DNA of 64,000 nucleotides. It comes from Deinococcales bacterium (GTDB taxonomy: Bacteria > Deinococcota > Deinococci > Deinococcales > JAAFIG01). The number at the start of each line of letters is the position of its first letter. The stretch's first letter is position 1. The notes below the pieces were generated by a model. The model had not been told where the DNA came from, searched no databases, and worked only from the letters and a program-made list of their open reading frames with translations. The translations under genes and the position numbers were made by a program. The stretch lies in contig JAYWGM010000095.1 in assembly GCA_043778225.1 (NCBI GenBank), positions 1-64,000 on the forward strand, read 5' to 3'. Shown here one piece after another: positions 1-64,000 of this stretch.

Positions 1-105
1 GGTGCTTGTACAGTATCTGCCAACGGTAGCGATTTTAACGTTATTGTGACTGGTGGAGCATCATCCGATAGTGTTAGCTCGCTCAATGGTCAACAACCAA
101 GGTAA
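1..105 (+). CDS. 3' end of a type IV pilin-like gene (partial), paralogue of the next gene
   Basis: Frame 1 reads GACTVSANGSDFNVIVTGGASSDSVSSLNGQQPR*, which aligns by eye with the C-terminus of 213..638 (GSCSITVVNSGFLVSVVGGLSAGSASSLNGSIPR*). Confidence 0.75.
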   Translation, partial: GACTVSANGSDFNVIVTGGASSDSVSSLNGQQPR

Positions 106-119
106 TCCGAATCTACCAT

Positions 120-165
120 AACCGAAAACCGACTAGGGTAAAGAATCTCTGGTCGGTTTTCGGTT
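120..165 (+). terminator. Hairpin / probable intrinsic terminator between pilin genes
   Basis: Inverted repeat aaccgaaaaccgactagg ... tctggtcggttttcggtt. Confidence 0.55.
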
Positions 166-212
166 CAAGCAGACACTTTATCTCAACGATATCAAACTCG
201 AGAGGAGGTGTT

Positions 213-638
213 ATGAGTCAAACTCGAGGTTTTACCCTAATTGAATTGTTGATCGTTATTGCAATAATCGGAATTTTAGCAGCAGTTTTAATTCCACAAA
301 TGTTAGGCGCACGAATTGCAGCCAACAAACGGGCTGTTCAAGCTCATTCAGGAAATGTATACAAGGCTGCTGAAGCAATCCGTAGCGAGAATTCAAGCCT
401 TACCGACATAGCTATTGCAAGTGCAGTCGAAGCTGTCTGCCGTTCTGTCAGCCCTGTCGTTTCAATTTCCGTTTCAGGAATCATGTTCCGATATGGATGG
501 AGTATCGCACCAGCATCAGTTATAGAAGCAGGTGGTAGTTGCAGCATTACAGTTGTCAATTCAGGATTTTTAGTTAGTGTTGTTGGTGGTCTTTCTGCTG
601 GTTCTGCATCATCACTCAATGGAAGTATTCCACGGTAA
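213..638 (+). CDS. Type IV pilin (prepilin with N-methylation motif)
   Basis: G|FTLIELLIVIAIIGILAAVLIP class III signal peptide; two Cys; GGAGG SD upstream. Confidence 0.9.
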   Translation: MSQTRGFTLIELLIVIAIIGILAAVLIPQMLGARIAANKRAVQAHSGNVYKAAEAIRSENSSLTDIAIASAVEAVCRSVSPVVSISVSGIMFRYGWSIAPASVIEAGGSCSITVVNSGFLVSVVGGLSAGSASSLNGSIPR

Positions 639-655
639 ATTTATTGCACTAATTC

Positions 656-689
656 CCTCACTAGGCTTATTCTAGTGAGGCTGTTTTTT
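656..689 (+). terminator. Intrinsic terminator after pilin
   Basis: cctcactag-gcttatt-ctagtgagg stem followed by a T-tract. Confidence 0.7.
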
Positions 690-702
690 AGCAAAGGACA
701 AA

Positions 703-2148
703 ATGAATAAAGAGTTAATCAGCACCAAGTCTATATTTATAATATTTTTTATCGCACTTGCGTTTGTATATCCTAATTTATATTATCCAGTTATTAATCC
801 GTTGGTTTCTTGGAGCTTACCCAGAATTATTCTGCTTTTGTTGTCATTTATTTTAACAATTTTAGCCTTAAAGTCAATTAAAATTAAAGGATTCCTGTTA
901 TTTTTTGTGGTTATAAATATTTTTTTAGTAAGTATTCAGTTTTTTAATCCCCTTGAAGATGAATTAATTTACACAATTTTAGGTGTTGATGATAGATTGG
1001 ATGGAATTGCTTATCAATTCCTTTTTATAGTATTTATAATTTTTGCAAACTACTGTATTCGCATACTAAACAATAAGACAAAATCTTTTTTATATTTTTC
1101 TCTTATCTCGGCAGGAGTAATTCAAAGTATTGTTTTAGTACACCAGTATACTTGGGTTCCGTTAGATTTAATATTTAGAAAAATATATTTTAGATTCGAT
1201 TCTCCTATGGGTTTAACAGGACACGCGGGTTATACTGCGGGTTTATTAGTACCTTTAATTATTATTGGAATTTTTACGACACAAAGTAAAAATCGAATAA
1301 TCTCCATTCTATCTTATGTATTTACTGCAATTATTTGTTTTGGCTTAAATCTTACCCAAAATCGCTCTTCACTTATCGCACTAAGTATTGTGCTTATTTT
1401 TTGGATATTCATCAGCTTAAAAAATATAAAGAAAATTAGTTTTATGGTGCTTTGTGTTATCTTAATTAATTTTTCTGAAAATATCCTACCCAAGAATCCT
1501 ACGTCAAGTAGAGACCTTTCAAATCCACAAACTTTAACAACAAGACTTGAAATCTGGAAATTTTCAACAGAACTTTTACCGCAAAGCTGGGGATTTCCTT
1601 TTTGGGGTGGAGGAACTGGAAATTTAAAACTACAAATTACCGACCAACTTCCAATAGAAAAACTAATGCTTTTTTACGAAAAAGAATACGGATGGCAATC
1701 AAGTAAAAATATCAAAAAGATTACCCCTCTGAATGAAAAGGATGCACCAAAACGTCAAAGAATGTATTTAGTCAAATATAATGATGGCGAACTTAAACCT
1801 GTTCGCTTAACTCTTGACCGCGCCCATAATTTCTTTCTGGATAAAGCCTTTTCGATTGGTTTAATTGGTGCGGTTGTCTGGATGATTTTCTATATCTATC
1901 CAATTGTAGCGTATTTCAGATTAAAGCCATATCAAAAAACTTTTGAGCAACAGGCTCTAAGCATGGCACTTATTGCCATTCAAATTTACTATATTTTCTG
2001 GTTTTCAGTCATGCAGGTTGAACCCATTCATGTGGTTGTGGCACTGATGGCATGGGTTGGCATCGAACGCGCCAAAGCCATGCCAGACCCAATAACTCAA
2101 GGTTTAAGCTCAAACATCTCCCCTACCCCCCAGTCACTCGAGACTTGA
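703..2148 (+). CDS. O-antigen ligase / Wzy_C-family membrane protein, probable pilin O-oligosaccharyltransferase
   Basis: Many TM helices, TQNRSS motif, R..IW and RAHNFFL..G..G loop motifs; adjacent to pilins; very AT-rich. Confidence 0.75.
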   Translation: MNKELISTKSIFIIFFIALAFVYPNLYYPVINPLVSWSLPRIILLLLSFILTILALKSIKIKGFLLFFVVINIFLVSIQFFNPLEDELIYTILGVDDRLDGIAYQFLFIVFIIFANYCIRILNNKTKSFLYFSLISAGVIQSIVLVHQYTWVPLDLIFRKIYFRFDSPMGLTGHAGYTAGLLVPLIIIGIFTTQSKNRIISILSYVFTAIICFGLNLTQNRSSLIALSIVLIFWIFISLKNIKKISFMVLCVILINFSENILPKNPTSSRDLSNPQTLTTRLEIWKFSTELLPQSWGFPFWGGGTGNLKLQITDQLPIEKLMLFYEKEYGWQSSKNIKKITPLNEKDAPKRQRMYLVKYNDGELKPVRLTLDRAHNFFLDKAFSIGLIGAVVWMIFYIYPIVAYFRLKPYQKTFEQQALSMALIAIQIYYIFWFSVMQVEPIHVVVALMAWVGIERAKAMPDPITQGLSSNISPTPQSLET

Positions 2149-4454
2149 CTCATTGGTACATCCAACCCATCGCGCCAAAGCGGTAACAAATTGTCGTAGT
2201 TCCTCGAGAATGGGTCGCCACTTTGCCCCATTGGGTGAATATACCGACTTTTATCGAGGCTCGAGAAGTCAAAAATACTGCGGTAACTCGCCCCAGCCCG
2301 TTGCACAAAGCTGTCTTGGTTGTAATTGCCAACATTGACCGTCAGGCGGCTGCCATTGGTCGGAATACTGCGGTTGACAAAAAATCCGACGGTCGGGTTA
2401 CTGCCAATCAGGGCATTAAATTGGGCAATGTGCAATTTGCGCCAATTCCATTCGGCTGGATTACTGCCAAGTTGTTTCTCAAGCGCCGCCGCCCCGTTCT
2501 CGAGGGCGTTCTGCATAATGATCTGGCAAGTCTCGAGGCTGCTGGTGCGCTTATCGTCGCAGTAGGGGCTGCCCTTACTCATGGCTGGAATTAAAAATGT
2601 CGGTTCATCAAAGTATTTGAAACCCGCTTCGTCCTCGAGTATCCGCGTCAGTTCACGGTAATAAAAAGCAAAAGCGGTCGCACCAGTGCTGTCAAGGGTG
2701 GCTTTATTGTTCCAGCTACGGACTTCGTTTTGCAAACGCTTGGCGACTTCGGATTTTGGCACAAGTGCCAGTAAACCGGGCATCAGTTCTCGAGAAACAA
2801 TACTTTCATTATCGTTTTGGGCGGCTCGCATGGTGGCAATGGTGTGCTTGGGGGTCTCGAGAATCAGTTCGCGGATGCGTTGGGCGCGGTAGCCTTCGTT
2901 GTAGGTGCTGTATTCTGGCAAATCTGCGCCAAAGGGCAGGGTGCGGTTGTTGGCGGTGACAATAAAGCCTTCTCGGGGGTTTAGTACATTGGGCAAGTCT
3001 TCAAATTTTTGGTAGCCCGTCCAGTCTGCGCCTTTGCTGGCTTCGGCTGGAAAACGTCCATCCCAGTTGCGAATCGGGATTTTTCCGGGCGCATAGTAGC
3101 CAATGTTGCCAGTGTCGTCGGCATAGACAAAGTTTTGTTGCGGTGTGACATAGCGGCGCATGGCGGTCTTAAAATCATCCCAGTTTTTAGCATAGTTAAA
3201 ACCCAAAAAGGCATCGAGCGTGGTGTCATTTGGCTCGAGTGCCACAAAGCGCAGGGCAATCGCTTGGGTTTCGGGGAGTTTCACGCCAACTGCCCCAAGG
3301 TCAGAGATTATCGGACCATAAGCACTGCTGCGGATGACAAATTTTTCTTCTTTCCCACCGACTTTAATCGTTTCTTCTCGAGACTCGAGTTTGACAAAAC
3401 CGTTTGGGGTTTTATATGCACCATCTTTAATTTCGAGTAAAAACAAATCTTGGGTATCTGGGGCAGTGTTGGTTGCGCCCCATGCAATTCGTTCGTTGCG
3501 TCCAAGCACCACACCCGGCACACCAGGCAGGGTTGCACCAATCGCAGAAACCGTATCACCTTTAATATCGGCTAAGTACCACAGGCTTGGGGCTTGAAAG
3601 CCAAGGTGCGGGTCGTTGGCTAAAAGCGGTTTACCCGATTCGGTTCTCGAGCCACCAACCACCCAATTATTGCTGCCCAAACCTTTTTCGTAGCCCAGTC
3701 CGTACTGTTCGCGGATACCTCTAGCGGTGTTCTGCACATTTTGCATCGTCATCTCGAGGGCTGCCGAAATAACGGCGGGCTTACTGCGTGGTGGCTCGAG
3801 TCCAGCAATGTTGAGTTTGCCTTTGTAATCCTCCAAGCGCAGTACCGTTGGGTAAGGCTTGGTGTATTCGGGTTTGAGAGCATTAAAACCAGCCAGACCA
3901 ACTTTTTTCAGTAAGCTCAGGTTCTCGAGTTCGCCATTCCAATTGCTCGAGAGGTTATACGCCAGCATTTTTGACCAGACCAAACTATCGGCGGGTTTCC
4001 ACGGTTCTGGTTTTACGCCCAATAAGCTAAATTCGATTGGATAGTTACCTTGGGCAATCACATTGTTGACCCCAGCCACATATGCCTCGAGAATCGCTTT
4101 ACTGCGTGGCTCGAGCGCCGCATAAGCACTTTCGGCAGCCCGATAAAAGCCCCATGTTCTTAAAAATTTATCTTGGTCGAGCGCCGCGCTACCCAGCACT
4201 TCGGATAAGCGCCCAGCCCCAGTTCGGCGATTGAGTTCCATCTGCCAGAGTCGGTCTTGGGCATGGCTAAAACCAAGCGCATAAAAGGCATCCAAATCGG
4301 TTTTGGCGCGGATATGCGGCACGCCCCATTGGTCTTTTTGAATCGTGACCGGTGCAGTCAAGCCCCGAACAGCTTGGGTATTGAGCGCAGCAGGGCTACA
4401 AGCAACGATAACCGCAACGCCTAAAAGCGCAGCAACAACAATTGGTTTTTTCAT
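2097..4454 (-). CDS. Penicillin acylase family (Ntn-hydrolase) lipoprotein
   Basis: DQWGVPHI, HAQDRLWQM, G|SNNWVVGGSRTESGKPLLANDPHL beta-subunit start; lipobox VIVAC. Confidence 0.92.
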   Translation of the reverse strand: MKKPIVVAALLGVAVIVACSPAALNTQAVRGLTAPVTIQKDQWGVPHIRAKTDLDAFYALGFSHAQDRLWQMELNRRTGAGRLSEVLGSAALDQDKFLRTWGFYRAAESAYAALEPRSKAILEAYVAGVNNVIAQGNYPIEFSLLGVKPEPWKPADSLVWSKMLAYNLSSNWNGELENLSLLKKVGLAGFNALKPEYTKPYPTVLRLEDYKGKLNIAGLEPPRSKPAVISAALEMTMQNVQNTARGIREQYGLGYEKGLGSNNWVVGGSRTESGKPLLANDPHLGFQAPSLWYLADIKGDTVSAIGATLPGVPGVVLGRNERIAWGATNTAPDTQDLFLLEIKDGAYKTPNGFVKLESREETIKVGGKEEKFVIRSSAYGPIISDLGAVGVKLPETQAIALRFVALEPNDTTLDAFLGFNYAKNWDDFKTAMRRYVTPQQNFVYADDTGNIGYYAPGKIPIRNWDGRFPAEASKGADWTGYQKFEDLPNVLNPREGFIVTANNRTLPFGADLPEYSTYNEGYRAQRIRELILETPKHTIATMRAAQNDNESIVSRELMPGLLALVPKSEVAKRLQNEVRSWNNKATLDSTGATAFAFYYRELTRILEDEAGFKYFDEPTFLIPAMSKGSPYCDDKRTSSLETCQIIMQNALENGAAALEKQLGSNPAEWNWRKLHIAQFNALIGSNPTVGFFVNRSIPTNGSRLTVNVGNYNQDSFVQRAGASYRSIFDFSSLDKSRYIHPMGQSGDPFSRNYDNLLPLWRDGLDVPMSQVSSDWGVGEMFELKP

Positions 4455-4501
4455 GTGCAGCTAGTTTAGCCAGTTTTTACTCGCGGCGCAAGGATGCAGT
4501 C

Positions 4502-5755
4502 CTATTGTGCAGTGCAAGCCGTGGCTGTACAACTAAAGCCTTTGCTCGGTGGCTCGAGCAAGACCAGATTGCCAGCACTCACATTCACTCCAGCCCCAAG
4601 AACATTGAGGTCAAATACCAAATTTGCCACCGATTTTGTACCGATCGACATGACCGCCAATGGATTTTGATTGGCAGGATTAAAGTTAAGACCCATAAAG
4701 GCTTTGCTGTCGATGTTTGGACCAGCTACACCATAAACCTTTATGCCCACCAAGAGTTTAGCAAAGACTTCGGCAGTACCGTCAACTTGGGTTTTATAAC
4801 TAAAAGTTGGAGTCAGACCAAAGGTTGGGGCTGTATTGGTGGCTGTCCACGGATTCGGAGCGCCTCGGACGTATTTAATCCCGTATTTCATGTTAGTTAA
4901 ACTGGCTTCAACACTGGCTTTAGCGCTGACCGTACCGTTCACCGTCATGCGGTAGCCAATCACTGGCTCGAGGGTCACAACGATCACCACAGGGATTGCC
5001 CCAATTAAAAAAGTACGGTTATAGGAAATTGGCTTTTTAAGAATCGGGATGACTGTTTCGGGTTTACCTGCACCGACCGTAGCCGCAAAATCGCCGTTTA
5101 ACTTAACTTTGAATGTTCCACCCATACCGACTTCAAAACGTTCAACCGAACCATTGGAAAATTTGAGATTAAATGTCGGCTGCAAGTTATTTTCGATGTT
5201 ACCCGACACTTTTAGGGTGGCTGCCCCAAAAACAAAAGTCCTTTCGTTAAAGCTCAGAATTAAGGACTGTGGTCGAGCAAGATTTTTTTGCAAACTGACC
5301 CCAGACTCGAGATTAGCAGGCAAAATTTCTGCACCAGCAAAGTCTAAGCTACCAAAATCCATATTGACTGTACCTTTACTGATGGCGGTCTCGAGGCTTG
5401 AGGGCGTGGTTTCGATGTAGACCTTGGCAATGTCTTGTGGACGAGCGCCGACTGCACCAAGGGTGGTGATTTTACTGATTTTTCGGATGATGCCATCGTT
5501 GCAGTTACTAGCGACGGTATCGCCAACCGCTAAACCAGTTGGGTCAGTCAGCAGACGGTTGGCTTCAATGGCATCTATGGTGCTTGGGTCTATGGACTTA
5601 AAAGCTGGGGCAACCGAAATTAAATCGGCTGGGTCTTGCACCACACTCGAGGCTGGTTGAACTGGGGCAGAAGTACAAACCGGCGGTGGTACGATGGGGT
5701 TACAAGCCAGAACTCCAACCACTAAAAAAGCGGTGATAACAGCGTAGCGTTTCAT
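4502..5755 (-). CDS. Hypothetical beta-rich lipoprotein
   Basis: 417 aa ORF, lipobox VLAC, ATGA overlap with the upstream gene. Confidence 0.75.
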   Translation of the reverse strand: MKRYAVITAFLVVGVLACNPIVPPPVCTSAPVQPASSVVQDPADLISVAPAFKSIDPSTIDAIEANRLLTDPTGLAVGDTVASNCNDGIIRKISKITTLGAVGARPQDIAKVYIETTPSSLETAISKGTVNMDFGSLDFAGAEILPANLESGVSLQKNLARPQSLILSFNERTFVFGAATLKVSGNIENNLQPTFNLKFSNGSVERFEVGMGGTFKVKLNGDFAATVGAGKPETVIPILKKPISYNRTFLIGAIPVVIVVTLEPVIGYRMTVNGTVSAKASVEASLTNMKYGIKYVRGAPNPWTATNTAPTFGLTPTFSYKTQVDGTAEVFAKLLVGIKVYGVAGPNIDSKAFMGLNFNPANQNPLAVMSIGTKSVANLVFDLNVLGAGVNVSAGNLVLLEPPSKGFSCTATACTAQ

Positions 5756-6243
5756 GGGGTCACCTCGATATTGGTCTCGGATAAGTCAATGATTTGGGCG
5801 TTGCTGCCCTCAATGGCTAACTTGATGGCGGTCTCGAGTTGGGCATTGTCTAAGCGCCCACGCGGCACAGTTTTCAGGGCAACATTGGTAAAAATCAAAA
5901 CCACCCGATTCTGACCCGTTGGCGCACCAACCACATAGGCTGCTTGGGCATTGCCTTGGCGGTCATCGGCTCGAGGAAAAGTGTGCTTACCTAAACCAAG
6001 TTGGACATTGCTCTCAAGTGGTGTGGTATTGCCTGTTGCGCCATACGAAAGCAAGGTCACAAAACCGGCTCGAGCCAATTGAAAAGAAAAACGTACCTGC
6101 TCACCGATTTTATAGCCAGCCCCCTCGGATTTATCGGGCAAAAATCCAGAAATAACCGCACTATTGGCAAAGCCTGTTCGATCCAAACGGGCTGGGGCGC
6201 AGGCTGCAAGAAAACACAAAGTCAGGAGTAAAAAGAAACGCAT
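5752..6243 (-). CDS. DUF4384-like lipoprotein
   Basis: Lipobox LAAC; Y.IGE.V.F....R.G.V.L and FP motifs typical of DUF4384. Confidence 0.65.
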   Translation of the reverse strand: MRFFLLLTLCFLAACAPARLDRTGFANSAVISGFLPDKSEGAGYKIGEQVRFSFQLARAGFVTLLSYGATGNTTPLESNVQLGLGKHTFPRADDRQGNAQAAYVVGAPTGQNRVVLIFTNVALKTVPRGRLDNAQLETAIKLAIEGSNAQIIDLSETNIEVTP

Positions 6244-6314
6244 GGCACAAATTCTACTGCGCTTTTACAAATTTACCGTGAGGAATCCCATATTTATCGT
6301 TCAGGACTTCTTCA

Positions 6315-7016
6315 TTAATCTTTCTCGCGCAAGCCAAAAATGACGGCTTCAAGCGCTTCAGGTCTGAGCAACACAATTAAGCCTGGGCGGGTTTTAATGA
6401 TGTTCTCTTTCTCGAGGTCACGCAAAGCCCGAGTGATTGTTTCACGGCTATTGCCTGTGCGGTTGGCGAGGTCTTGGTGGGTAAACTCGAGGGTTGGCAG
6501 CCCATCTTTGCTGCTCTTAAAGCCGCCACGCAAATATAAACCTTGCAGGGCATAGGCGATACAGGCTTGGGTACTGGCAAAAGAAAGCATTTCGACTTCG
6601 CGGTTCATATCGCCTAAGCGCTTTGCCAAAATTCGGGTTAAATTCCAAAGCACATGAGGATGCCTGTCTAAAATCGCCTTGAGGTCTTCGCGGTAAATCA
6701 CCAAGGTGCTGACTTGATCAAGGCAATATGCCGTGGCACTGCGCGGGCTGCTCGAGATAACCGCCATTTCGCCAAGCACTTCTGGGCTGCTGAGGACTGT
6801 AAAAATGCGTTCGCGCCCTTCGAGGTTGGCTCGAGAAACCTTGACCCGCCCATCGTGAATCATATAAATCGCTTCGCCGGGGTCGTCCTCGCGGAAAATC
6901 GCCGACTCGGCTGCAAAAACCCGCACGGTCGTGGCTTCAAGTGCCATTTTTATGGCAGCTTCCGGCGCTCCGCTAAACAGCGAAGACCGCTCTAAGGCAG
7001 AACGCAGATCATCCAC
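6315..7016 (-). CDS. Crp/Fnr-family transcriptional regulator
   Basis: cNMP domain (GEMA...PRSATA) plus HTH THQDLA...SRETITR; GTG start 6 nt after TAGACT. Confidence 0.92.
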   Translation of the reverse strand: MDDLRSALERSSLFSGAPEAAIKMALEATTVRVFAAESAIFREDDPGEAIYMIHDGRVKVSRANLEGRERIFTVLSSPEVLGEMAVISSSPRSATAYCLDQVSTLVIYREDLKAILDRHPHVLWNLTRILAKRLGDMNREVEMLSFASTQACIAYALQGLYLRGGFKSSKDGLPTLEFTHQDLANRTGNSRETITRALRDLEKENIIKTRPGLIVLLRPEALEAVIFGLREKD

Positions 7017-7055
7017 AAAATCAGTCTAGCACGTGTGGTATGTTTACCAGCGAAG

Positions 7056-7712
7056 ATGGCAATTTCTTTAGCAGTCAACGCCCTATTTCATTCTTTTCCA
7101 AGCACCGGCGAGGTTTTGCGTGGGGTCAGTTTTAGCCTCGAGGCTGGTTGTGTACTGGCAATTTTAGGTCCTTCGGGCAGTGGCAAGAGTACGCTTTTAC
7201 ATTTATTGGGCGGCTTAGAAGCCCCAAAGTCTGGCGAAGTCATTTGGGGGACAAGCAGCCTCGCTGGAGTCAGCCAAGAGATTTTAGCCCGTCGTCGTGC
7301 CAAAGAAGTCGGTTTTGTTTTTCAGCATCATTATTTGCTCGAGGATTTAACGACCTTAGAAAATGTGATGCTCCCGAGCCTGATTGCCAAAGCCGCCAAC
7401 CCCGAGCGTGCCAAAATGCTGCTCGAACGGGTTGGTCTATCCGAGCGCAGCCATGCTTACCCGCGCACCTTATCGGGTGGCGAGCGCCAGCGCTGTGCCT
7501 TGGCTCGAGCCTTGGTGACTAAACCCAATTTTGTGCTGGCAGACGAACCGACTGGCAGCCTAGACCGTGCCAATGCCGAGCGTGTTTTTAGTTTATTGGT
7601 AGATTTAGCCCATCTCGAGCAAGCTGGCGTGGTGATTGTCACCCACGACGAAGCCTTGGCGCAAAAAGCTGATCGAATTATTCGGCTCGAGGATGGAATG
7701 ATAAAGAGCTAA
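7056..7712 (+). CDS. ABC transporter ATP-binding protein (LolD-like)
   Basis: GPSGSGKST, LSGGERQR, LADEPTGSLD, VTHD; start moved to ATG 7056. Confidence 0.88.
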   Translation: MAISLAVNALFHSFPSTGEVLRGVSFSLEAGCVLAILGPSGSGKSTLLHLLGGLEAPKSGEVIWGTSSLAGVSQEILARRRAKEVGFVFQHHYLLEDLTTLENVMLPSLIAKAANPERAKMLLERVGLSERSHAYPRTLSGGERQRCALARALVTKPNFVLADEPTGSLDRANAERVFSLLVDLAHLEQAGVVIVTHDEALAQKADRIIRLEDGMIKS

Positions 7713-7795
7713 GGTTAAAAGGGAAAAAGGTTAAAAGTGTTTATACCTCACTCTTAACCTTTTTTCCCTTTGACCTTTTAACCCTTCTTTAACCC
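7711..7795. repeat. Octamer (AAAAGGTY-type) satellite forming a long hairpin between convergent genes
   Basis: aaggttaaaagggaaaaaggttaaaagtg ... cactcttaaccttttttccctttgacctt. Confidence 0.75.
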
Positions 7796-8941: not shown

Positions 8942-9009
8942 AAGTTCTCCTTGGTGAATACTCGAGATGAGGCTCGAGGAGTTGCAGTTGCCCATATGGG
9001 CTAAGTTTT

Positions 9010-9059
9010 TTCGCCCATACAGGCTTGGTATCGGTTCGCCCATACAGGCTTGGTATCGG
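9010..9059. repeat. Perfect 25-bp tandem duplication (2 copies)
   Basis: ttcgcccatacaggcttggtatcgg at 9010-9034 and 9035-9059. Confidence 0.9.
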
Positions 9060-9126
9060 CAGGAAGTTTACGAAGCCGACCTTGGCATCGGGTGAAGTGG
9101 GCGTGAGAAGCGTGGGTTAAGGCGCT

Positions 9127-10710: not shown

Positions 10711-10782
10711 AAGTACAGTCTAAACCTCGAGACTCGACAGCAGCAAGTTTTTTCTGGCATACTAAACACAGGAGGAAATACC

Positions 10783-51951: not shown

Positions 51952-51955
51952 GTTA

Positions 51956-53688: not shown

Positions 53689-53691
53689 ACT

Positions 53692-54048: not shown

Positions 54049-54110
54049 CAAAGGATTGTACTGCAAAAAGCAAAGCACCCACGTGGTAACACGCGGGAAG
54101 GGCAACAGCA

Positions 54111-54254
54111 CCCCCCGCCGCTTCGCGGCGACCCCCTGCTTCGCAGGGGGTGACTTTTCTAATGCTAAAAGCTAAAAGCCCAAGCCCTGCGCTCTTAGCC
54201 CTCCCTGCGAAGCAGGGGAGGTGGCTCGAGCTTGCGAGAGACGGAGGGGTGGGG
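54111..54254. repeat. Inverted pair of double-hairpin palindromic elements next to DUF559
   Basis: ccccccgccgcttcgcggcgaccccctgcttcgcaggggg on + and cccctccgtctctcgcaagctcgagccacctcccctgcttcgcagggagg on -; both share CCCTGCTTCGCAGGG. Confidence 0.75.
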
Positions 54255-54265
54255 TTGCCCCGCAC

Positions 54266-57200: not shown

Positions 57201-57706
57201 TAGAATTTCTTAGTAACTTTTTCAACATCCAGCGCGTTACCTAGGCGTTTGACAGCTTCGGTAACTGGTAGGTTGCCGCGTTCGTCGAGGTCGGAAATAT
57301 CCACGAACATTCCAATTATTTTGGAAATAAATAAGTCACCTGTTTGACCTTTTACAAATAAATGGTCGCGGTCTATTTCTTTTTTGCCATCGCGTTTCAC
57401 CCAGTACCAGAGGCTTTGGGTGGGTGCGTCCAGCTTGTCAGTAAAAATAATTAAGTGTTCAAAAGCCAGTTTCGTAATTTCTTTATGAAAACTTTTACGC
57501 AAGTTTTTGTTGGTCAGGGCTGCTTGGTTTTCGATTTGAAATACTTTAACGCCGCCTAGTGTCGCAATTTCTTGGTAATGGCTGGTTATTGTGCCATTTT
57601 TAAGGCTCGAGATTCTGGGGTTGCTGGGGTTATTCCAACCTAAATCTCTAAAAACTTCACCAAAGTTAAAATCTTGTAAGTGTTGACGCAGTTTTTTAAT
57701 ATTCAT
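54266..57706 (-). CDS. Large amino (N6-adenine type) DNA methyltransferase, Eco57I / type IIG-like
   Basis: YLNGGLF, LGYIFE, GAYYT, LDPACGSGAF (motif I), IIANPPW (motif IV), C-terminal target recognition region. Confidence 0.9.
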   Translation of the reverse strand: MNIKKLRQHLQDFNFGEVFRDLGWNNPSNPRISSLKNGTITSHYQEIATLGGVKVFQIENQAALTNKNLRKSFHKEITKLAFEHLIIFTDKLDAPTQSLWYWVKRDGKKEIDRDHLFVKGQTGDLFISKIIGMFVDISDLDERGNLPVTEAVKRLGNALDVEKVTKKFYKEFDAVRLEFRDFITGIENEKDKAHYASVLLHRLMFIYFLQAKGFLDTKSGDNGNRNYLDQKLEAYKTTNFYQDFLKDLFFEGFAKPPEARDAATQQKLGHIKYLNGGLFLAHRIELENQNIEVQNQAFTNLFKLFSDYSWNLDDTPEGKDNEINPDVLGYIFEKYINNKAFGAYYTRPEITEYLCKQTIHQLILEKVNVGRGVAGLPQKKFSDLPEMLLKLDANLCTELLEQVLPKLKLLDPACGSGAFLIAALKTLTDIYGAILGRIDILNDPYLNNWKKIQQGNRSTFTYVVKRRIVTDNLFGVDLMPEATDIARLRLFLAMVSSAKSVEDLEPLPNIDFNILSGNSLIGLMHIDETNFNTRVNDAQLAMFDAPEAGLRTKTYQEIIDTRLRQLKDYRGAAELGIENLQGLQKNLREGQAEALKVLNPMLLEEFGNQGIRFEEASWDTTKNKEGKTTKRALTLADIENLEPFHWGFEFAEAMKEGGFDAIIANPPWDTFKPIDREFVGRYTGTVDRRTTSVKEFQAELAKLLKDKTIRLEYEKYLSQYPHVSAFYRSGSQYQHQGRGDVNLYKLFTEQCWRLLRSDGFCGIVIPSGIYSDLGTMPLREMLFAETKVTGLFCFENRKTVFENVDSRFKFVVLTFEKSGFTKEFSAAFMRHNTSDLELFPNEVGLKINVDLIRRLSPDSLSVMEFKSVTDIEIAEKMALFPLLGEQLEKTWNFSLTREFDMTNDSHLFQSAKTKNDLPLYEGKMIWHFDAHYAEPRYWLNQKTARAAILGRTEDTEQQLDYQRYRFGCRSITGNTNERTMVCMVVPKDVFCGNSLQVLKFENSEISDTEILFLDAVMSSYIVDFSLRQRVATQMNFFFVYQTPVPRLTTRDTRFKPIVTRAAKLICTTPEFDELAKSAGLGSHKDGATIPTERAKLRAELDGLIAHLYGLTESEFAHILETFPLVTEGVRLAALNAYQDVRNGLIK

Positions 57707-57713
57707 ACCAATC

Positions 57714-57950
57714 CTAGATGAGCGCTATAATTTCGGTAAGACTTCGTTCGCGTTGTTCAGCGATGGTGCTGAGAATATCGTGGAGTGTCCCGACTTTAAT
57801 TTGCTTGTGCATTGGAATGACAATGTGGGCTTGGGGTGGTCCTGGGTGAGTGAATCTTGCATGACTGCCATTTTGTCGAATGAATTGATACCCTAAGCGT
57901 TCAACTGTCCTCGCCAGTTGTTCGCCGCTCATGTCTCGAGGCAATTTCAT
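57714..57950 (-). CDS. HicA-family toxin
   Basis: LGY...RQ.GSH......IVIPMH..IKVGTL..IL. Confidence 0.88.
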   Translation of the reverse strand: MKLPRDMSGEQLARTVERLGYQFIRQNGSHARFTHPGPPQAHIVIPMHKQIKVGTLHDILSTIAEQRERSLTEIIALI

Positions 57951-58165
57951 GCAGCGTTGACCAAGAGTAATTCGTCTTTCACGTAATGCAGTGCGACCAA
58001 TTTGGGTTGTGCTTCGGCGGAGTCAAAATATGCGCCTAGTGCTTCGCGGATATTATTTTTGAGTTCTTCCCATGTTTCGGCTTGGGTAAAAATTGGTTTA
58101 CCCAGTGCTTTGGCGTGATAACCGCCTTCTTCTGCGTCGCGGATTTCAAAAATAAGTTCGGTCAT
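57947..58165 (-). CDS. HicB-like antitoxin (RNase H-like fold only)
   Basis: EEGGY.A......FTQAETWEEL..NIREA; ATGA overlap with hicA; start moved to 58165. Confidence 0.8.
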   Translation of the reverse strand: MTELIFEIRDAEEGGYHAKALGKPIFTQAETWEELKNNIREALGAYFDSAEAQPKLVALHYVKDELLLVNAA

Positions 58166-58188
58166 GATTTTAGTGTACCTGATTTTTT

Positions 58189-61100
58189 TTAGATCAATCC
58201 TAGGGAACAAATAATTTCGGTGGTTTTGCTGTCCTGTTCGGCTTGAATGTTACACAATCGGTTATCTTCGCGTAACGTCAGGACAAGGTTCATCAGGTCT
58301 TCGTCGCTGATACTGTTTTTGAGTTGTCGCCCTAGGGTATCACGGGCATTCTCGAGCAACGGGTAACGGTATATGTCGTCTGTGGCTGCATGAATGGCTT
58401 GATTCTCGAATAAACTGCCTTGGATTTTTTCGGCATAATTTTTTAGACGTTGATACGTTTTGAAGCGGGCATCGCTGCGTTTACCAAGTTGTCCGCTCAG
58501 GCTTTGGTCTTCGGCGGCAACCAGTTCCATACCCCGTGTTACAAGTTCATGGTGATTCTCGGCTCGAGTTTGACTTGGGGTGTTTGGGTTGCAAGCTGCC
58601 ATTTCTAGGATTGTTAATTGCGAATACGAAACATTATTGCCATTTTGGTCTAACCACACCAGTGCATCGTTGCCTTGGCTACTTCGGGCATAAACCAGTG
58701 CGCCTTGTGGTTGCTCGAGACTGGGAACGTGGCGTTTAGCGGCATAAACCACGTTGGGCATATCGCGGATTTGATTTTCAAAATTTGGATTGTTCTCGAT
58801 GGCTTTTTGCCAAATGCTGTAGGCATAACTGGCGAGGTCTACTTCGGTGTCGGTTTCACCATCGAGTAAGCCGCTTTTTTCGTTGTATAAGTCTAGGATT
58901 ATGTTTTCATCATCGTCTTCAAAAAATTGTTCGTCTGTACCGATCACTTCAGCATTTTGTTTTAATCGGCTTTTAACACGGCGGCGTAAATTGATGATTC
59001 GTTCGACTCCTTCGGCGGGCAGAAAACTGTAACAAAATATCTTTTCGGCTTGTTGTCCAATGCGGTCTACTCGTCCTGCTCGTTGAATCAGGCGAATAAT
59101 TGCCCACGGTAAATCAAAATTCACGACAATATGGGCATCTTGTAGGTTTTGTCCTTCGGATAGCACATCCGAAGAAATCAGTACCCGAAGTTCGTCGCTT
59201 ACTTTTTTATCGTTGCTGCGTGGTGAAAAACGCCACGCCAAGGCAGTTGGGTCGTTGCTCGAGCCGACAACACCCGACATTTTTTCTATTCCTCTGGCTT
59301 TTAATTCTCGTTCTAAGTAATGCACTGTATCGGCAAACTGGGTGAAAACCAAAATTTTTTCTTCGGGATGGGTTTTTTCTATCAGGTTTTGTAGTGCCTT
59401 TAGTTTTGTGTCAAGGTCGGGATTCCAACGCCCACAGTTTTTTAGCACCTCTTGAATCGCGGTTGCGTCTAATGTTAAATGCTGGTGTAATTCCTTGGCA
59501 AAAAGGTCGCTGCGTAACCATTTGAAACGCTTTTTGAATTGGGTCGCATAATCATTGTATATTTCGGCAGCTTTACTTTTCATTTCGGCTTGACTTAAAA
59601 AAATAGTTTCGGAGTTTCTACTTTCATCGGGTTCATCCTCATTGCTGGTTTCATCGTCTATTAAGCTCATCTCGAGTAAAGTTTGGGTATTGTCGTCGGC
59701 ATCTTCATCCGAAAACCTTGCATCTAATAACTCGGCGGTCTGTGTTCCAATTGGTAATGGCAGGTTGTGTTCAAGCGCGTACAAAAATATATAATTACGC
59801 AGCACATGACGTTCTAAACTCTGTACAAAGGTCGTGCCACCACTCTCGAGCCGCTTAAAGAGGTTGGTCCGACAAAAACCAATTAAGCGCTTACCAGCTC
59901 GTCCTAAGTTCTGAATTTGTTTCTGCTCGAGGGTTGTGGGGGCAATGGCTGGTTTCTCGAGAATGTACTTACCCAGTCCGTAACGTGGCAAGATCAGGTT
60001 TTCTATTGCAAAAATAACTTGGCTCGAGTACAAACGGGCATAAGGGTCATTTGGGTTTTGGTCGTCTATTGCAAAGCGTACAGTTTTAGGTTGACGAGTT
60101 GGGAAATACGAACGTTTTCCGTTAGCAAAGGTCAGGTAAGCCCGTCCAGTATCGTCTTTTTCGGCGTATATGTTCTGAATGAAACTTCGGGTTCGGCGTA
60201 CCATAAATAAACGCATTAGTTCGCGCCAGTCGTCTGGGAATTCACTTTTCTCAAAGGCTTTAATCGAACGAGGATTGGTCTGTAAATGCCCAAGTTCATG
60301 TTCGCCTTTGGCGCGAATCAGGGCTTCTGGTCGAATTCCAAGGTCGGTCTCTTCTTTAATGAATAACCCTAGTTGGCTCGAGAGGTCAAGGTAGGTTTTG
60401 TTATAAGGCGTGGCGGACAGCAAAATACATTTGGCTTTGCAGAGTTCGATGTATTCTTTAATAATTTTGTAACGCCGACCTTCGCGGTTGCGTAAATTAT
60501 GACTTTCATCTATTAGAACCAATTGGTTTGGGCGTTGTTCAGGTAATTTTTTGACCACCTGAGTGATTGGTAAAACTCGAGCGTTCAAGTCGTACTTATC
60601 AATGTAGTCCTGCCACATCTTAGTGAGGTTTTTAGGACAAATAATCAGAGTACGGGCTTGAAAATCTTGTTCATAAAGTTTTATCAGCGCAGTTGCCATC
60701 AGGGTTTTACCAAGCCCAACCACATCGCCTAGAATTACCCCACCGCGTTTATTCAAATGATTTGCGGCAATGCTAACGGCTTTTTCTTGGTATTCAAATA
60801 ATTCGCGCTTTAATTGCTTTGGAATCGTAAAAGAATTGATGCCCGCTCGAGCATCCGCCGAAAGGTGGTATGCCATTTTAATATAAATTTGATACGGTGT
60901 GACCGCATTACCAGCCCATGAAGCATCAATAATTTCAATCAGTTCTTGGCTAATGTCTAAACTCCAACGGTCAGCCCAACGATCTTCAAACCAGCCTTGT
61001 AGCTTCTGAGCCGCATCAGCATCGAGTACATCCACGTTTAACTCGCCTTGTTTAGCCAATCCAGCCAGCGTTAAATTACTCGAGCCAAGATAAGGCACAA

Positions 61101-61563
61101 TTGGGGTAATACGGTCAGAGCGGTGCATTAGATATAACTTAGCGTGTAAGCCCTGACGTACTGATAATTTCACCACCACTTTGCCGCTTTTTAGTTGCTC
61201 ACTCAGACGGCGCAAACCTGCTTCATCGGCGTTACTGGGTGCGCCATAAGTCAGTTGTTTCTTAAAATGCTCTGCTGTTTGGCGCTGCAAACGTTTTGCT
61301 GTGGCATTATCAAGCTCTTGATGACCTTTTGTTAAATTGTATAAAACTCGCAGTTCATCTTGGGGCAAGCTCTGCATTCCAACCAATAACCGTACTCTTG
61401 ATTCTGGTGTTCCTGTCCAAGTTTCGATATGTGAGTCCAGTAATTTCCAACCACGCATATTAAAATAACCAACACAAAAATCGGCACGAGATGAACTTTT
61501 AAGTGTTGCTATGAGGGTCGGCGATAGGAACTGTTCGATATTATCAAAAATCCTAGGCATCAT
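58189..61563 (-). CDS. PLD-nuclease-SNF2 helicase fusion
   Basis: N-terminal LHAKLY...GSSNLT (HKD-like), DVVGLGKT, DESH, SATP, SEGQNLQ, QRAGRVDRIG. Confidence 0.9.
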   Translation of the reverse strand: MMPRIFDNIEQFLSPTLIATLKSSSRADFCVGYFNMRGWKLLDSHIETWTGTPESRVRLLVGMQSLPQDELRVLYNLTKGHQELDNATAKRLQRQTAEHFKKQLTYGAPSNADEAGLRRLSEQLKSGKVVVKLSVRQGLHAKLYLMHRSDRITPIVPYLGSSNLTLAGLAKQGELNVDVLDADAAQKLQGWFEDRWADRWSLDISQELIEIIDASWAGNAVTPYQIYIKMAYHLSADARAGINSFTIPKQLKRELFEYQEKAVSIAANHLNKRGGVILGDVVGLGKTLMATALIKLYEQDFQARTLIICPKNLTKMWQDYIDKYDLNARVLPITQVVKKLPEQRPNQLVLIDESHNLRNREGRRYKIIKEYIELCKAKCILLSATPYNKTYLDLSSQLGLFIKEETDLGIRPEALIRAKGEHELGHLQTNPRSIKAFEKSEFPDDWRELMRLFMVRRTRSFIQNIYAEKDDTGRAYLTFANGKRSYFPTRQPKTVRFAIDDQNPNDPYARLYSSQVIFAIENLILPRYGLGKYILEKPAIAPTTLEQKQIQNLGRAGKRLIGFCRTNLFKRLESGGTTFVQSLERHVLRNYIFLYALEHNLPLPIGTQTAELLDARFSDEDADDNTQTLLEMSLIDDETSNEDEPDESRNSETIFLSQAEMKSKAAEIYNDYATQFKKRFKWLRSDLFAKELHQHLTLDATAIQEVLKNCGRWNPDLDTKLKALQNLIEKTHPEEKILVFTQFADTVHYLERELKARGIEKMSGVVGSSNDPTALAWRFSPRSNDKKVSDELRVLISSDVLSEGQNLQDAHIVVNFDLPWAIIRLIQRAGRVDRIGQQAEKIFCYSFLPAEGVERIINLRRRVKSRLKQNAEVIGTDEQFFEDDDENIILDLYNEKSGLLDGETDTEVDLASYAYSIWQKAIENNPNFENQIRDMPNVVYAAKRHVPSLEQPQGALVYARSSQGNDALVWLDQNGNNVSYSQLTILEMAACNPNTPSQTRAENHHELVTRGMELVAAEDQSLSGQLGKRSDARFKTYQRLKNYAEKIQGSLFENQAIHAATDDIYRYPLLENARDTLGRQLKNSISDEDLMNLVLTLREDNRLCNIQAEQDSKTTEIICSLGLI

Positions 61564-61660
61564 TTTTCCTTATCATTAACATCCATCATATCCTCAAAAT
61601 GACTTTTGGCACGCTTGTGGGTATTGATGCGTGAAGCTGCTGAAAGGTAAACTTTTGGGT

Positions 61661-61948
61661 ATGACCGTTACCCCAGCCGAAATGGAACACCTGAAAAAAC
61701 TAGCCAGACTCGAGATGAGCGCCACAGAAACCGAAGCCGCCGCCAAGGACATCAATAATATCCTCGAGAGTTTCAAAGCCTTGCAAAACCTTGACTTGAG
61801 TGCTTTCCCTGAAATGCCACGACCTGTGCCAATGCAAAACATCATGCGCCAAGACGTTGCCGTGGCTGGACTCGAGCAGCGCGAAGCGATGGCAATTGCG
61901 GTAGAAGCCGAAGATGGTTTTTTCAAAGTGCCGCGTACAGTTGAATAA
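61661..61948 (+). CDS. gatC: Asp/Glu-tRNA amidotransferase subunit C
   Basis: HL.KLARL, MR.D, DGFFKVP; start moved to 61661. Confidence 0.9.
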   Translation: MTVTPAEMEHLKKLARLEMSATETEAAAKDINNILESFKALQNLDLSAFPEMPRPVPMQNIMRQDVAVAGLEQREAMAIAVEAEDGFFKVPRTVE

Positions 61949-61993
61949 AAATCGAACCCCATTTCGGGATTCGATTCAGGCTCGAGTAAAATG

Positions 61994-63901
61994 TTACGGC
62001 ATCATTGGACCGGGCGCAGTGACTCTTAACTGTGCGTTTGTGCTGGTTAAAGTGCCAACCGAATTACTGACGACCACATAGAAAAGGGCAAAATCATCTT
62101 GGTTGGTTGTAGCTGCAATGGTGTAACTCGAGCTGGTCGCACCAGAAATAAGTACCGAATTACGAAACCATTGGTACGAAATTGGGTTTGTGCCAGTGGC
62201 TGTAACACTGAATGTGGCAGGCATTCCAAGAAATACCATTTGCGGACCCGGTTGTTGGGTAATCGAAGGGTCTGGAGCAGCCGTGACAGTCAGGGTAGCG
62301 GCAGCACTGGTCACACTGCCAGCCAAGTTGGTTATTACAACTGTAAACTGTGCGCCATTATCGGCAAGGCTAACGGGAGAAATACCGTAAATACTATTGA
62401 TTGCATTCGGAATCAAAACACTGTTTCTGTACCACTGAAAGCTGACCGCCGTGGGGCTGTTGCTGCTAACTCCAAACGTAGCCGCTTGTCCAACCACCTT
62501 ACTCAGGCTTATCGGTTGGGCGGTAATGATTGGAATCGCTCCAGGTGTGGCTAACACATTCAGGGTCGCGGCAAAGCTGGTGACACTACCGCCAAGGTTG
62601 GTCACAACCACCGTAAAAACTGCGCCATTGTCGGATAGAACAGTGCTGTTCAGCAAATAGCTGCTGGTGGTTATATTTGGAATCAAAACAGCATTTTTGT
62701 ACCACTGATATGTGACAGGGCTACCACTCGAGACCGTGACCGAAAAGCTGCTTGGGCTGCCAACAAGCACAGTCGTACTGCGTGGCTCAGATAAAATAAC
62801 GGCTTTTTTGTTGATAATCACATCGCTTAGCACCAAACAAGTCGTTAAGGTTATATCGGTGCTAGAAGCACCAACTTGAACTGTATTGGATTCTTGAGTC
62901 TGCGTTGTACCTTTGACTGCCAGCAAGGTGGCAATGGCGTTTTTCTTGATTGGGATGCGAAAGGTATTGGTATTGGCGTTTGAATACCTGATGCTTGTTC
63001 CCGAATAGTTAAACCCTTGGCTCGAGACGCTAAAACCAGTCGTAATTGGCAGATTGGCCGAATCCACCAAGCAACCACTGACAAAAATCGTGTTGTAAAC
63101 TTGGTCGGCATTCCAAAACGAAAAATGGCTAACTGTACCTTCGTAGTACCGATTGGTTGGTGTGCCAAGCAATGTTGCAGTGCCTTCCTCGAGCCAACGC
63201 CCCGTGGTTTCGTTAAAGTAAAAAAGTGGAATCGTAGCTGGCAAAGTGATAGCGCGGCTGGCAACTGGAATCCGAATCGTGGCGGTTTTACCAGCGCCAA
63301 GATTGAGCTTATTGCCATTTGAATCACTTAGTTCGATGTTTAACGCGCCAAAACTTTCAATGCTTTCTATTTGGCTGCCATTCTGGGCAGTGTAATCGCC
63401 GGGCATACTCTGTGGGTTAGCGGCTGGGTCAATCGGTGTAACTTGGGCGGTAATGTTGCCGCTTGCCAGTACACCAGTCGCCGCGTCAACAAGGCTGTTG
63501 GCACTCAAAGCAACTTGGGCGGACGAACTCGGAACACTGACAGTGGTATTGACATTGGCGGCAAAAGTTGTGCTGACCGCGATTTTACTTAAAACAACTT
63601 GGGTGTCACTAGTCTGATTTTGCAGCACCGCCAGATTTCTAAATGCCGACACATAACCAAGCGCTTCAAATTTTACAACTGCTTGGTCAGTTATGGGAAG
63701 ATTGGCGAACTCAAAACTTCCATTTGCAATAGTGGTACTCGAGAAACCACCAACACTGATTTTGGCATTGGCTAATGGCAGCGCCGTATCGAGTGCCAGA
63801 ACTGTACCTGCAATTGTGCCGATGGCTGGCGCGGTGCTGCCGCCACACGCCGATAAAAAGAGTGCGAAAAGCGAACAAGCCAGCAGTAAACCTTTTTTCA
63901 T
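61994..63901 (-). CDS. Surface lipoprotein with carboxypeptidase-regulatory-like domain and three Ig-like repeats
   Basis: Lipobox LSACGG; V.HFS.WN; three I..QP....V..G....F.V......YQW..N repeats; start moved to 63901. Confidence 0.8.
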   Translation of the reverse strand: MKKGLLLACSLFALFLSACGGSTAPAIGTIAGTVLALDTALPLANAKISVGGFSSTTIANGSFEFANLPITDQAVVKFEALGYVSAFRNLAVLQNQTSDTQVVLSKIAVSTTFAANVNTTVSVPSSSAQVALSANSLVDAATGVLASGNITAQVTPIDPAANPQSMPGDYTAQNGSQIESIESFGALNIELSDSNGNKLNLGAGKTATIRIPVASRAITLPATIPLFYFNETTGRWLEEGTATLLGTPTNRYYEGTVSHFSFWNADQVYNTIFVSGCLVDSANLPITTGFSVSSQGFNYSGTSIRYSNANTNTFRIPIKKNAIATLLAVKGTTQTQESNTVQVGASSTDITLTTCLVLSDVIINKKAVILSEPRSTTVLVGSPSSFSVTVSSGSPVTYQWYKNAVLIPNITTSSYLLNSTVLSDNGAVFTVVVTNLGGSVTSFAATLNVLATPGAIPIITAQPISLSKVVGQAATFGVSSNSPTAVSFQWYRNSVLIPNAINSIYGISPVSLADNGAQFTVVITNLAGSVTSAAATLTVTAAPDPSITQQPGPQMVFLGMPATFSVTATGTNPISYQWFRNSVLISGATSSSYTIAATTNQDDFALFYVVVSNSVGTLTSTNAQLRVTAPGPMMP

Positions 63902-64000
63902 GGTGTTTCCCCTTTGTGCTGTCTCGAAGTGGCTCGAGTTGAGATTAGTACAGAACAAAGTCTATTTCTGGGGTCTTAAAAGGGTCTTAATGGTTACTCG

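Follow-up and report, generated by a model that had tools for sequence, protein, structure and literature searches.

CTCGAG as a highly iterated, actively maintained palindrome of an uncultured Deinococcales family and its possible role as a Chi-like signal

Introduction

What keeps a bare six-base word in place at several copies per kilobase throughout a bacterial genome? The question is raised by a stretch of 64,000 nucleotides (hereafter the window; positions 1–64,000 of contig JAYWGM010000095.1) from a Deinococcales bacterium, in which an initial annotation, made from the sequence alone, had noticed the palindrome CTCGAG as an element resembling HIP1, the highly iterated palindrome (HIP) of cyanobacteria, and had suggested that the lineage has a mechanism generating or maintaining it. 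We confirmed that the CTCGAG excess is real, family-wide and actively maintained. The view of a HIP-like word, acting at the level of DNA and maintained in a lineage of Deinococcota, holds, and its function may still be sought in an uptake or recombination signal, whereas the methyltransferase expected to track the word did not materialize.

Results

CTCGAG saturates the window and its genome

The earlier hand counts of 47 copies in positions 1–10,000 and 32 copies in 54,266–61,563 were exact. Over the full window we counted 342 copies, corresponding to 5.3/kb, with 15–34 copies per 4-kb bin; in the called genes 177, 65 and 69 copies fell into frames 0, 1 and 2, respectively, and 31 lay outside genes (Table 1). 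The genome containing the window (G000; 4.03 Mb in 107 contigs, 89% complete, GC content 0.487, with no bacterial small-subunit rRNA in the assembly) yielded 24,877 copies in 4,029,277 bases, or 6.2/kb (6,174/Mb), all 107 contigs carrying the word at 4.0–10.6/kb each. The density was even, without strong clusters, as 2-kb windows held 3–21 sites (1st–99th percentile). Comparison with Markov models, a check that had been proposed for the excess, supported it with observed-to-expected (O/E) ratios of 26.7, 47.5 and 15.1 at orders 0, 1 and 2. Based on our own gene calls (3,470 genes), the coding and intergenic densities were 6.2/kb and 5.8/kb, the intergenic copies exceeding the second-order Markov expectation 13-fold.

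The unit is the bare hexamer, with little flank preference and no extended consensus past six bases. Among the flanked forms, CCTCGAGG was the least common, with 243 copies in G000 versus 1,117–2,032 for the other three 8-base palindromes. Reduced densities were observed for the lowest-GC 1% of genes (only 1.0/kb), for the genes of 33 small basic proteins, many of them ribosomal (3.2/kb), and for the tRNA and tmRNA genes (6 copies in 5,658 bases); the three longest CTCGAG-free gaps (3.4–5.6 kb) coincide with low-GC islands.

The excess overrides codon choice and alters protein sequence

As had been argued at the outset, CTCGAG occurs in all three frames and between genes, and no single codon pair accounts for its excess. 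Synonymous shuffling within genes, keeping the protein (mean of five shuffles), could have abolished the enrichment; instead, 22,060 coding copies were observed in G000 compared with 2,349 after shuffling, a 9.4-fold excess that stayed in every frame (13,171, 4,389 and 4,500 observed versus 1,672, 368 and 308 shuffled). Other hexamers were not equally enriched, the next palindrome reaching 1.7 and the next-ranked hexamers being overlaps of CTCGAG itself. Leu-Glu is the most over-represented dipeptide of the genome (2.33).

One could attribute such an excess to codon-pair or amino-acid bias, in line with the Leu-Glu frame holding 60% of coding CTCGAG, or to an assembly artefact. However, 69% of Leu-Glu pairs are spelled CTC-GAG, although CTC and GAG make up just 9% of Leu and 22% of Glu codons elsewhere, and the intergenic excess is equal. 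The assemblies of 19 independent genomes of the family concur, and contigs from two sequencing runs, one possibly the window's own source, are near-identical to the window. Codon shuffle and intergenic counts refute this explanation, whose remaining probability we consider negligible.

Sites are protected from decay and repel close neighbours

Site loss was assessed in three close species pairs (G003, G005 and G001; four-fold-site divergence of 0.20–0.27, 34–47 kb of aligned codons per pair, counted from both sides). Leu-Glu CTCGAG sites had changed synonymously in 19/245, 33/281 and 24/216 cases (8–12%), whereas 46%, 58% and 61% would be expected from CTC and GAG codons elsewhere. By our own estimate, sites that are lost six to seven times more slowly have a scaled advantage of about 3. 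In the closest pair, 31 of the 51 discordant partners differ from CTCGAG by one base, mostly through transitions. Multi-base overwriting as the origin of sites, suggested by many partners differing at 2–4 bases at ~80% identity, was dropped because of this predominance of one-base partners in the closest pair. Gain from one-off precursors was seen in 2 of 12 cases, a small sample, and four-fold-site divergence near shared CTCGAG was flat, without any decrease. After masking of CTCGAG, three one-off transition variants were about 2-fold enriched in G000, and all single-base variants were rare relative to the full word. A one-step deamination-repair ratchet, a form of the repair bias considered initially, is disfavoured, since one-off transitions are enriched rather than drained. 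CTCGAG is protected against decay and is neither a mutational hot spot nor a drained precursor: it arises and decays by point substitution, held by a force on the DNA that is weak per site (scaled strength of about 3), enough to fix rare codons and to double the Leu-Glu dipeptide. It is absent from fresh low-GC islands, and a copy is less valuable with another within ~30 bp.

This repulsion is evident from the occupancy of Leu-Glu positions by CTCGAG, which was 23% with sites ≤24 bp away on both sides, 52% with such a site on one side and 82% with both neighbours beyond 100 bp. The corresponding log-odds were about −1.9 at 6–11 bp, followed by −1.5, −0.8, −0.55 and −0.4, the last at 36–59 bp. 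The effect is equal upstream and downstream, additive, still detectable at 100–250 bp and gone beyond 400 bp; it fits a 1/d dependence or a decay over 20–30 bp (log-likelihood −9,043). Four control codon pairs gave flat profiles without a distance effect, and non-palindromic direct or inverted neighbours had no consistent effect on occupancy. The strongest periods of the CTCGAG pair correlation did not include one of 10–11 bp (periods of 4–60 bp examined, contigs ≤154 kb). Furthermore, we observed an excess of pairs exactly 7 bp apart (123 in G000) and elevated numbers of intergenic pairs 21–30 bp apart. At 12–40 bp, 60 of 453 intergenic pairs extend into a longer stem (~14 by chance), suggesting that close intergenic pairs are used as terminator stems.

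An old preference of the order is amplified in one family

The nearest named records to G000 are uncultured Deinococcales metagenome-assembled genomes (MAGs), followed by Deinococcus species. All 19 genomes of its uncultured family, termed f1 (MAG completeness 57–94%), carry CTCGAG at 4.3–6.8/kb (rounded sizes used), equivalent to 12,000–35,000 copies per genome. The comparison across Deinococcota that had been called for thus showed the excess in 19/19 f1 genomes, a milder one in several outgroups and depletion in Deinococcaceae: among 171 genomes, the other families of the order reach at most 3.4/kb and family f3 at most 0.27/kb. We infer that f3 and the genera g9 and g13 are Deinococcaceae, Thermus and Meiothermus, respectively.

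Codon-shuffle analysis of outgroup pools, comprising 23–257 kb of coding DNA each and partly picked around methylase and addAB genes, yielded CTCGAG excesses of 3.4-fold in g13, 2.6-fold in g22/g24, 2.0-fold in f2 and 1.7-fold in f4. In these pools, which cover three other families, the word ranks first or second among 1,149–2,072 hexamers, with a 3- to 7-fold excess off frame. For g9 it was neutral (94 observed versus 119 shuffled; 0.8), and in named Deinococcaceae loci we found 9 copies versus 55 expected (rank 1,988 of 2,019 hexamers), Deinococcus depleting several other palindromes about as much. A named Meiothermus silvanus plasmid exhibited a 1.8-fold excess (150 of 348 kb), with 29 versus 7.8 copies off frame. 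The top rank of CTCGAG in several outgroup pools indicates that a mild preference is old in Deinococcales and was amplified in f1.

A three-copy scan for CTCGAG-dense viral stretches listed at least 128, of which 80 were examined; the 20 densest had no match to G000 proteins, and no phage could be assigned to f1. When three sequencing runs were compared with 20 kb, the contigs were either nearly the same or derived from other organisms, so that no polymorphism could be used; run X3 makes up a small share and counts as no evidence. Among open-licence papers and bioRxiv, we found none joining 'highly iterated palindrome' with CTCGAG. Judged by title and opening of the abstract, the papers listed for the phrase deal with cyanobacteria or their proteins and phages, and nothing relevant turned up on CTCGAG or over-represented palindromes in Meiothermus, Thermus or Deinococcus.

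Methyltransferases do not track the word

The annotation had pointed to an orphan XhoI-, PaeR7I- or TaqI-like methyltransferase whose presence follows the enrichment. G000 encodes about two dozen DNA methyltransferase genes, many of low GC, none common to all of f1. We searched 19 f1 genomes with PF00145, PF01555 and PF07669, six with PF02086 and five with PF12950, and clustered 125 candidate methylase open reading frames (ORFs) from 137 loci, a set that does not include every match; no family-wide methyltransferase cluster emerged (19 genomes; D12 class in 6/19). By eye, a group of ~500-residue methylases looked like type I M subunits. A PaeR7I/TaqI profile, built from a TaqI-like enzyme of G025 and a PaeR7I-like enzyme of G042 with inferred type labels, gave a full-length match in one of the 19 f1 genomes (G009), a protein that is itself a profile row and 28% identical to the G042 enzyme. 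Neither type was found in the single-contig f1 genome G013, and the XhoI endonuclease family PF04555 matched 0/19 f1 genomes and 4/42 others.

Order-wide scoring of the best candidates, at most eight per genome, placed a TaqI-type methylase in 27/27 g9 genomes, a genus without CTCGAG excess, and the PaeR7I type in 3/15 g13 genomes, where the carriers (2,195–2,442 CTCGAG/Mb) lie inside the non-carrier range (1,390–3,097/Mb). Full-length PaeR7I-type carriers outside f1 varied from 730 to 3,058/Mb. Thus, no such enzyme is f1-wide and both types fail to track the word. The TaqI-like enzymes of g9 (L306–L312 and L373–L389 except L377) form at least two subgroups. In the published methylome survey, three species, Marinithermus hydrothermalis, Meiothermus ruber and M. 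chliarophilus, are given N6-methyladenine (m6A) at CTCGAG without a listed restriction partner; six methylases are entered for M. silvanus, none of them for CTCGAG (PMC4752239). PaeR7I/TaqI-type enzymes look like shields for an abundant CTCGAG rather than its cause.

Restriction-type sites are nearly lost

The same genome is depleted in many other palindromes. In G000, 35 of the 64 palindromic hexamers occur at less than 0.15 of expectation, many restriction-type sites at 1–6%, and GGCC appears 131 times in 4 Mb. The avoided set comprises what we take to be about 30 classic type IIP sites, among them GGCC, GRCGYC, GGNNCC, GDGCHC, RCATGY, RGATCY and CCWGG. The depletion extends to the proteome, where Trp-Pro (0.09 of expectation; supplying 69 of 116 coding GGCC) and Gly-Pro (0.34) are rare, apparently owing to the GGCC or GGNCC that they entail; with Trp-Pro down to 9% of expectation, the genome strikingly illustrates how forces acting on DNA edit a proteome. 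The avoided sites differ among f1 members, as do the methylase genes, and in our reading the avoidance reflects restriction systems being exchanged heavily. In the 111 genomes that belong to neither f1 nor f3, the excess of CTCGAG was not significantly correlated with the avoidance of GAGCTC (rho −0.15); f5 was the only family with a negative relation, and in f4 the relation was positive. A GroEL-like gene of GC 0.59 at a contig end contains nine otherwise avoided palindromes and is possibly foreign or misassembled (Table 1).

AddAB is present and invading DNA carries the word

An E. coli RecB query retrieved an 871-residue helicase-nuclease in G000, scoring below the curated cut-offs of AddA models. 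AddA was detected in G000 and in 11/11 other f1, 45/48 f2, 15/15 f4 and 47/48 f5 genomes, which gives 119 of 123 when Deinococcaceae are set aside, compared with 2/48 in f3, both weak partial matches in longer frames; addAB was reported as not identified in Deinococcus (PMC9751324). The addB gene lies upstream of addA in most relatives. In G000 the two are on separate contigs with unrelated neighbours, and they are adjacent in G006, G011, G013, G014, G016 and many outgroups. Profile comparison links the AddB of G000 to its B. subtilis counterpart (E 6e-11), and AddB proteins are the top five matches of its predicted fold (pLDDT 74); an AddAB with the inactivated-helicase Chi-scanner fold is therefore encoded by the host. 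This AddB terminates in a three-cysteine cluster, and its nuclease domain looks degenerate.

We compared the AddB pocket in 52 regions, four of them lacking the AddB N-terminus. Across 14 rows of the alignment there is no variation at the positions corresponding to Q42, E129 and R132. The position of R70, which contacts Chi bases directly in B. subtilis AddB (PMC4614115), is occupied by Ala in g9 (19/19 genomes); of 31 others, 30 have Gln, Asn or Arg and one has Ala; three g15 genomes without excess over GAGCTC have Arg, Arg and Ala. In Thermus thermophilus, addAB mutants show 100–1,000 times higher natural transformation (PMC9751324).

In the single CRISPR array found in G000, 10 of the 43 unique spacers contain CTCGAG, versus 0.27 expected by composition and 7.3 at host density, and no spacer matches another contig, indicating that invading DNA bears the word too. 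Queries with E. coli MutH, Vsr, RecC and RecD found no match in G000. ComEC and ComEA were present in 5/5 f1 genomes checked, and a DprA-like gene and three prepilin-type genes were recognised by eye and pattern. The genera g3 and g5 have three extra short, signal-peptide-like ComEA-type helix-hairpin-helix proteins beside the main ComEA.

Weighing the candidate mechanisms

With a confidence falling somewhat short of even, we favour CTCGAG as a palindromic Chi-like signal of AddAB spread by biased recombination. The word would mark DNA able to outlast end resection and take part in homologous recombination, the likeliest reader being the AddAB helicase-nuclease, for which the palindrome may serve as a stop readable from both directions. 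AddAB would run past a broken or incoming molecule lacking CTCGAG, and the position would be rewritten from the intact copy, whereas a molecule carrying the word would keep its site; such biased conversion could spread CTCGAG even if no single site raised fitness. Passing the filter of many exchanged restriction systems, this traffic of DNA might also erase restriction sites, and the short-range repulsion could, speculatively, reflect the footprint of the enzyme or base pairing between two palindromes once the strand is unwound. HIP1 has likewise been proposed to act in a Chi-like manner (bioRxiv 2024.09.10.611283). In its fullest form, which we regard as doubtful, the proposal describes an order-wide, methylation-independent palindromic Chi-like signal of the Deinococcales AddAB that biased recombination drove to one copy per 160 bases in f1, a family with heavy DNA exchange, and that, acting jointly with restriction, erased ~30 other sites, with codons and proteins rewritten both ways and the word lost in Deinococcus together with AddAB. 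Several observations speak against an AddAB reader. The listed Chi sites are non-palindromic, and codon usage has been argued to explain their abundance (bioRxiv 2021.07.08.451572). Lineages favouring the word do not share one AddB pocket, the T44 position being S, G, D or A within f1 and the R70 position N, Q or R. The Ala of g9 at the R70 position looked promising, but the comparison gave a mixed picture: G057 and G061, whose CTCGAG does not exceed GAGCTC, have Arg, and in G065, with 18 versus 11.9 CTCGAG, the residue is Ala. AddA is found in 26/27 g9 genomes, yet these show no excess; the association of AddA with the excess depends on the single loss in f3, where many other genes also went; and since AddA also occurs where the excess is only 1.5–2-fold, it cannot account for the extreme f1. 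As to spacing, a benefit linear in gap length fits far worse (log-likelihood −9,424 versus −9,043), and five other palindromes also tend negative below 36 bp, with wide errors, so that the short-range effect may not be wholly specific to CTCGAG.

A different reader could be an abundant double-strand DNA-binding protein with a footprint of 20–30 bp that organises or protects the nucleoid, selection keeping an even coat of sites. The palindrome suits a dimeric binder, the repulsion is symmetric, additive and roughly footprint-sized, the density is even, and a chromosome role has been argued for HIP1 by Xu et al. (PMC5861425); nevertheless, we consider it unlikely, as no candidate protein and no 10–11 bp period among the top periods were found, and a binder alone does not explain CTCGAG in CRISPR spacers. 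Those spacers also bear on a DNA uptake sequence, read by a competence pilus or other uptake protein and spread by molecular drive, because their donor DNA carries the word at host density, which uptake drive would not predict for lytic phages. By analogy, the doubled peptides and a drive comparable to codon selection resemble known uptake sequences, whose cores are, however, non-palindromic and 9–10 bases long (PMC2817400). HIP1 abundance correlates with uptake-system proteins (PMC13756078). The competence genes described above are in place, but ComEA has no extra domain by eye and no reader or receptor candidate was found; an uptake signal would be a decidedly unlikely answer. Loss protection, presence of the word on any replicating DNA including spacer donors and the rarity of all single-base variants would equally follow from a methylation-independent repair bias, in which a protein recognises CTCGAG in one strand at a mismatch and repairs the opposite strand to match, undoing losses and fixing gains. 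We know of no precedent for such a bias. No candidate enzyme was found, MutH and Vsr having no match in G000; NucS does not track the word, being absent from most of g1 and present in f3; and neighbour repulsion out to 250 bp is left without a reason, making this reading improbable. Slightly more improbable still is Elhai's ratchet or a relative of it, in which CTCGAG is methylated by a cognate enzyme and repair guided by the methyl mark makes and keeps sites. The three m6A-marked species (PMC4752239), the presence of MutS and MutL in G000 and the incompleteness of the MAGs leave room for it, and different methylases, or one of a new fold, could serve different genomes. Against it stand the lack of a common f1 enzyme, the absence of both types in G013, the failure of methylases to track the excess, a four-fold-site divergence that is not lower near shared CTCGAG, and the excess on a plasmid of M. 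silvanus, which has no CTCGAG methylase entry (PMC4752239).

Other features of the window and genome

We read the CTCGAG-free stretch near the start of the window as recently acquired DNA in which the word has not yet been gained. Two core genes and a probable defence island (48,767–53,688 together with 54,266–61,563) carry it. The fused restriction-modification gene of this island has close relatives in three other f1 genomes among the loci compared and is therefore no candidate for a family-wide cognate methylase. Four tandem ORFs of 484–497 residues have no Pfam match; the first three possess lipoprotein-like N-termini, and the first two are 47% identical. Elsewhere in G000, ~4 kb hold 26 tRNA-like genes for most of the amino acids, with neither GC nor CTCGAG density out of the ordinary.

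Table 1 Coordinates of the word, candidate genes and other features (window positions unless a contig is given)
Feature	Position	Strand	Details
Dispersed exact CTCGAG copies	197..63938	.	n=342; first at 197, last at 63,933; 311 genic, 31 outside
Near-absence of restriction palindromes	1..64000	.	GGCC 6, TTTAAA 1, AAGCTT 1
Near-absence of restriction palindromes	1..64000	.	Zero GAGCTC, CTGCAG, GGCGCC, GACGTC, CCGCGG, TTCGAA
CTCGAG-free stretch (~1.9 kb)	229..2136	.	Spans low-GC (0.33) O-antigen-ligase-like gene 703–2148
Four tandem ORFs	20955–26941		See text
EngA/Der GTPase gene	39521..40918	+	Core gene, 6 CTCGAG; marker grouping the genome with uncultured Deinococcales MAGs
DXP synthase gene	43683..45554	+	Core gene, 11 CTCGAG (5.9/kb)
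Two AAA_21 ATPase + DUF4276 pairs	48767–53688		Adjoin the fused restriction-modification and PLD-SNF2 helicase genes (54266–61563)
Eco57I/MmeI-like fused restriction-modification gene	54266..57706	-	GC 0.43, 18 CTCGAG (5.2/kb)
PLD-SNF2 helicase gene	58189..61563	-	Adjoins the fused restriction-modification gene; GC 0.44, 13 CTCGAG (3.9/kb)
addA (candidate reader)	G000:C79:31198-33810		Outside window
addB (candidate reader)	G000:C32:43473-45914		Outside window; intact
GroEL-like gene	G000:C15:117563-118936		Contig end
tRNA-like gene cluster	G000:C19:9937-14171		26 genes
Extra ComEA-type proteins	L352, L353, L356, L358 (G013); L349, L354, L357, L359 (G011)		

Comparison with known systems

Like HIP1 (GCGATCGC) and the alternate HIPs of cyanobacteria, CTCGAG is a palindrome dispersed over genic and intergenic DNA in all frames that arises by substitution, is conserved beyond codon needs and is missing from foreign islands (PMC4390886, PMC5861425). 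Its abundance of 6,174/Mb at O/E 15–48 agrees with the 500–2,500 or more per Mb, genome-wide, that characterise the class, for which Xu et al. also describe a periodicity at tens of kilobases (PMC5861425); it occupies all coding frames and non-coding DNA beyond what codons require, and is conserved beyond neutral expectation and gained by substitution. It is not HIP1 proper, as CGATCG has an O/E of 0.11 in G000 and the genome groups with Deinococcales. Phylum and word differ, and the main text of PMC4390886 does not contain CTCGAG; the density is 4.3–6.8/kb against 0.3–2.7/kb for HIP1, and its 67% GC is below the 75–100% reported for alternate HIPs that replace HIP1. Elhai described a predicted cognate methylase in every HIP genome (PMC4390886), whereas none is common here, judging from four Pfam classes (D12 in 6/19) and the PaeR7I/TaqI profile. 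CTCGAG behaves like a HIP but lacks the accompanying methyltransferase.

Hexamer and order are shared with the m6A CTCGAG methylases of Meiothermus and Marinithermus, and the same hexamer clusters near dnaA in Nocardia (PMC4752239); the passages of that survey concerning the word give methylation and local clusters and no genome-wide excess. The scattered occurrence of such methylases, which fall into at least two types, would fit a role in shielding a site that was abundant beforehand rather than in bringing it about. Pasteurellaceae and Neisseria uptake sequences share the build-up by molecular drive and the approximate doubling of encoded peptides, but number hundreds to thousands of copies with 9–10-base non-palindromic cores (PMC2817400), compared with 12,000–35,000 palindromes here. 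With Chi of AddAB and RecBCD (AGCGG in B. subtilis), CTCGAG shares a short, frequent word, a scanner-fold AddAB and a plausible role in filtering DNA ends (PMC4614115, PMC4824097). It departs from Chi in overriding codons 9-fold, whereas the listed Chi sites are non-palindromic with frequencies argued to follow codons (bioRxiv 2021.07.08.451572), and in having, as a palindrome, no orientation relative to replication; the AddB base-contact residues differ from those of B. subtilis, and Chi-type recognition is putative. If AddAB does read CTCGAG, a recombination signal would override codon choice and amino-acid sequence genome-wide, countering the view that Chi abundance merely reflects codons and offering a practical means of transforming Meiothermus-like hosts. 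A milder excess occurs in relatives that have been cultured, and a test host is already available in the addAB mutants of T. thermophilus. For HIP1, three decades have passed without a settled function, its methylases blurring cause and consequence; CTCGAG offers an independent, denser case in another phylum, where methylases do not track the word.

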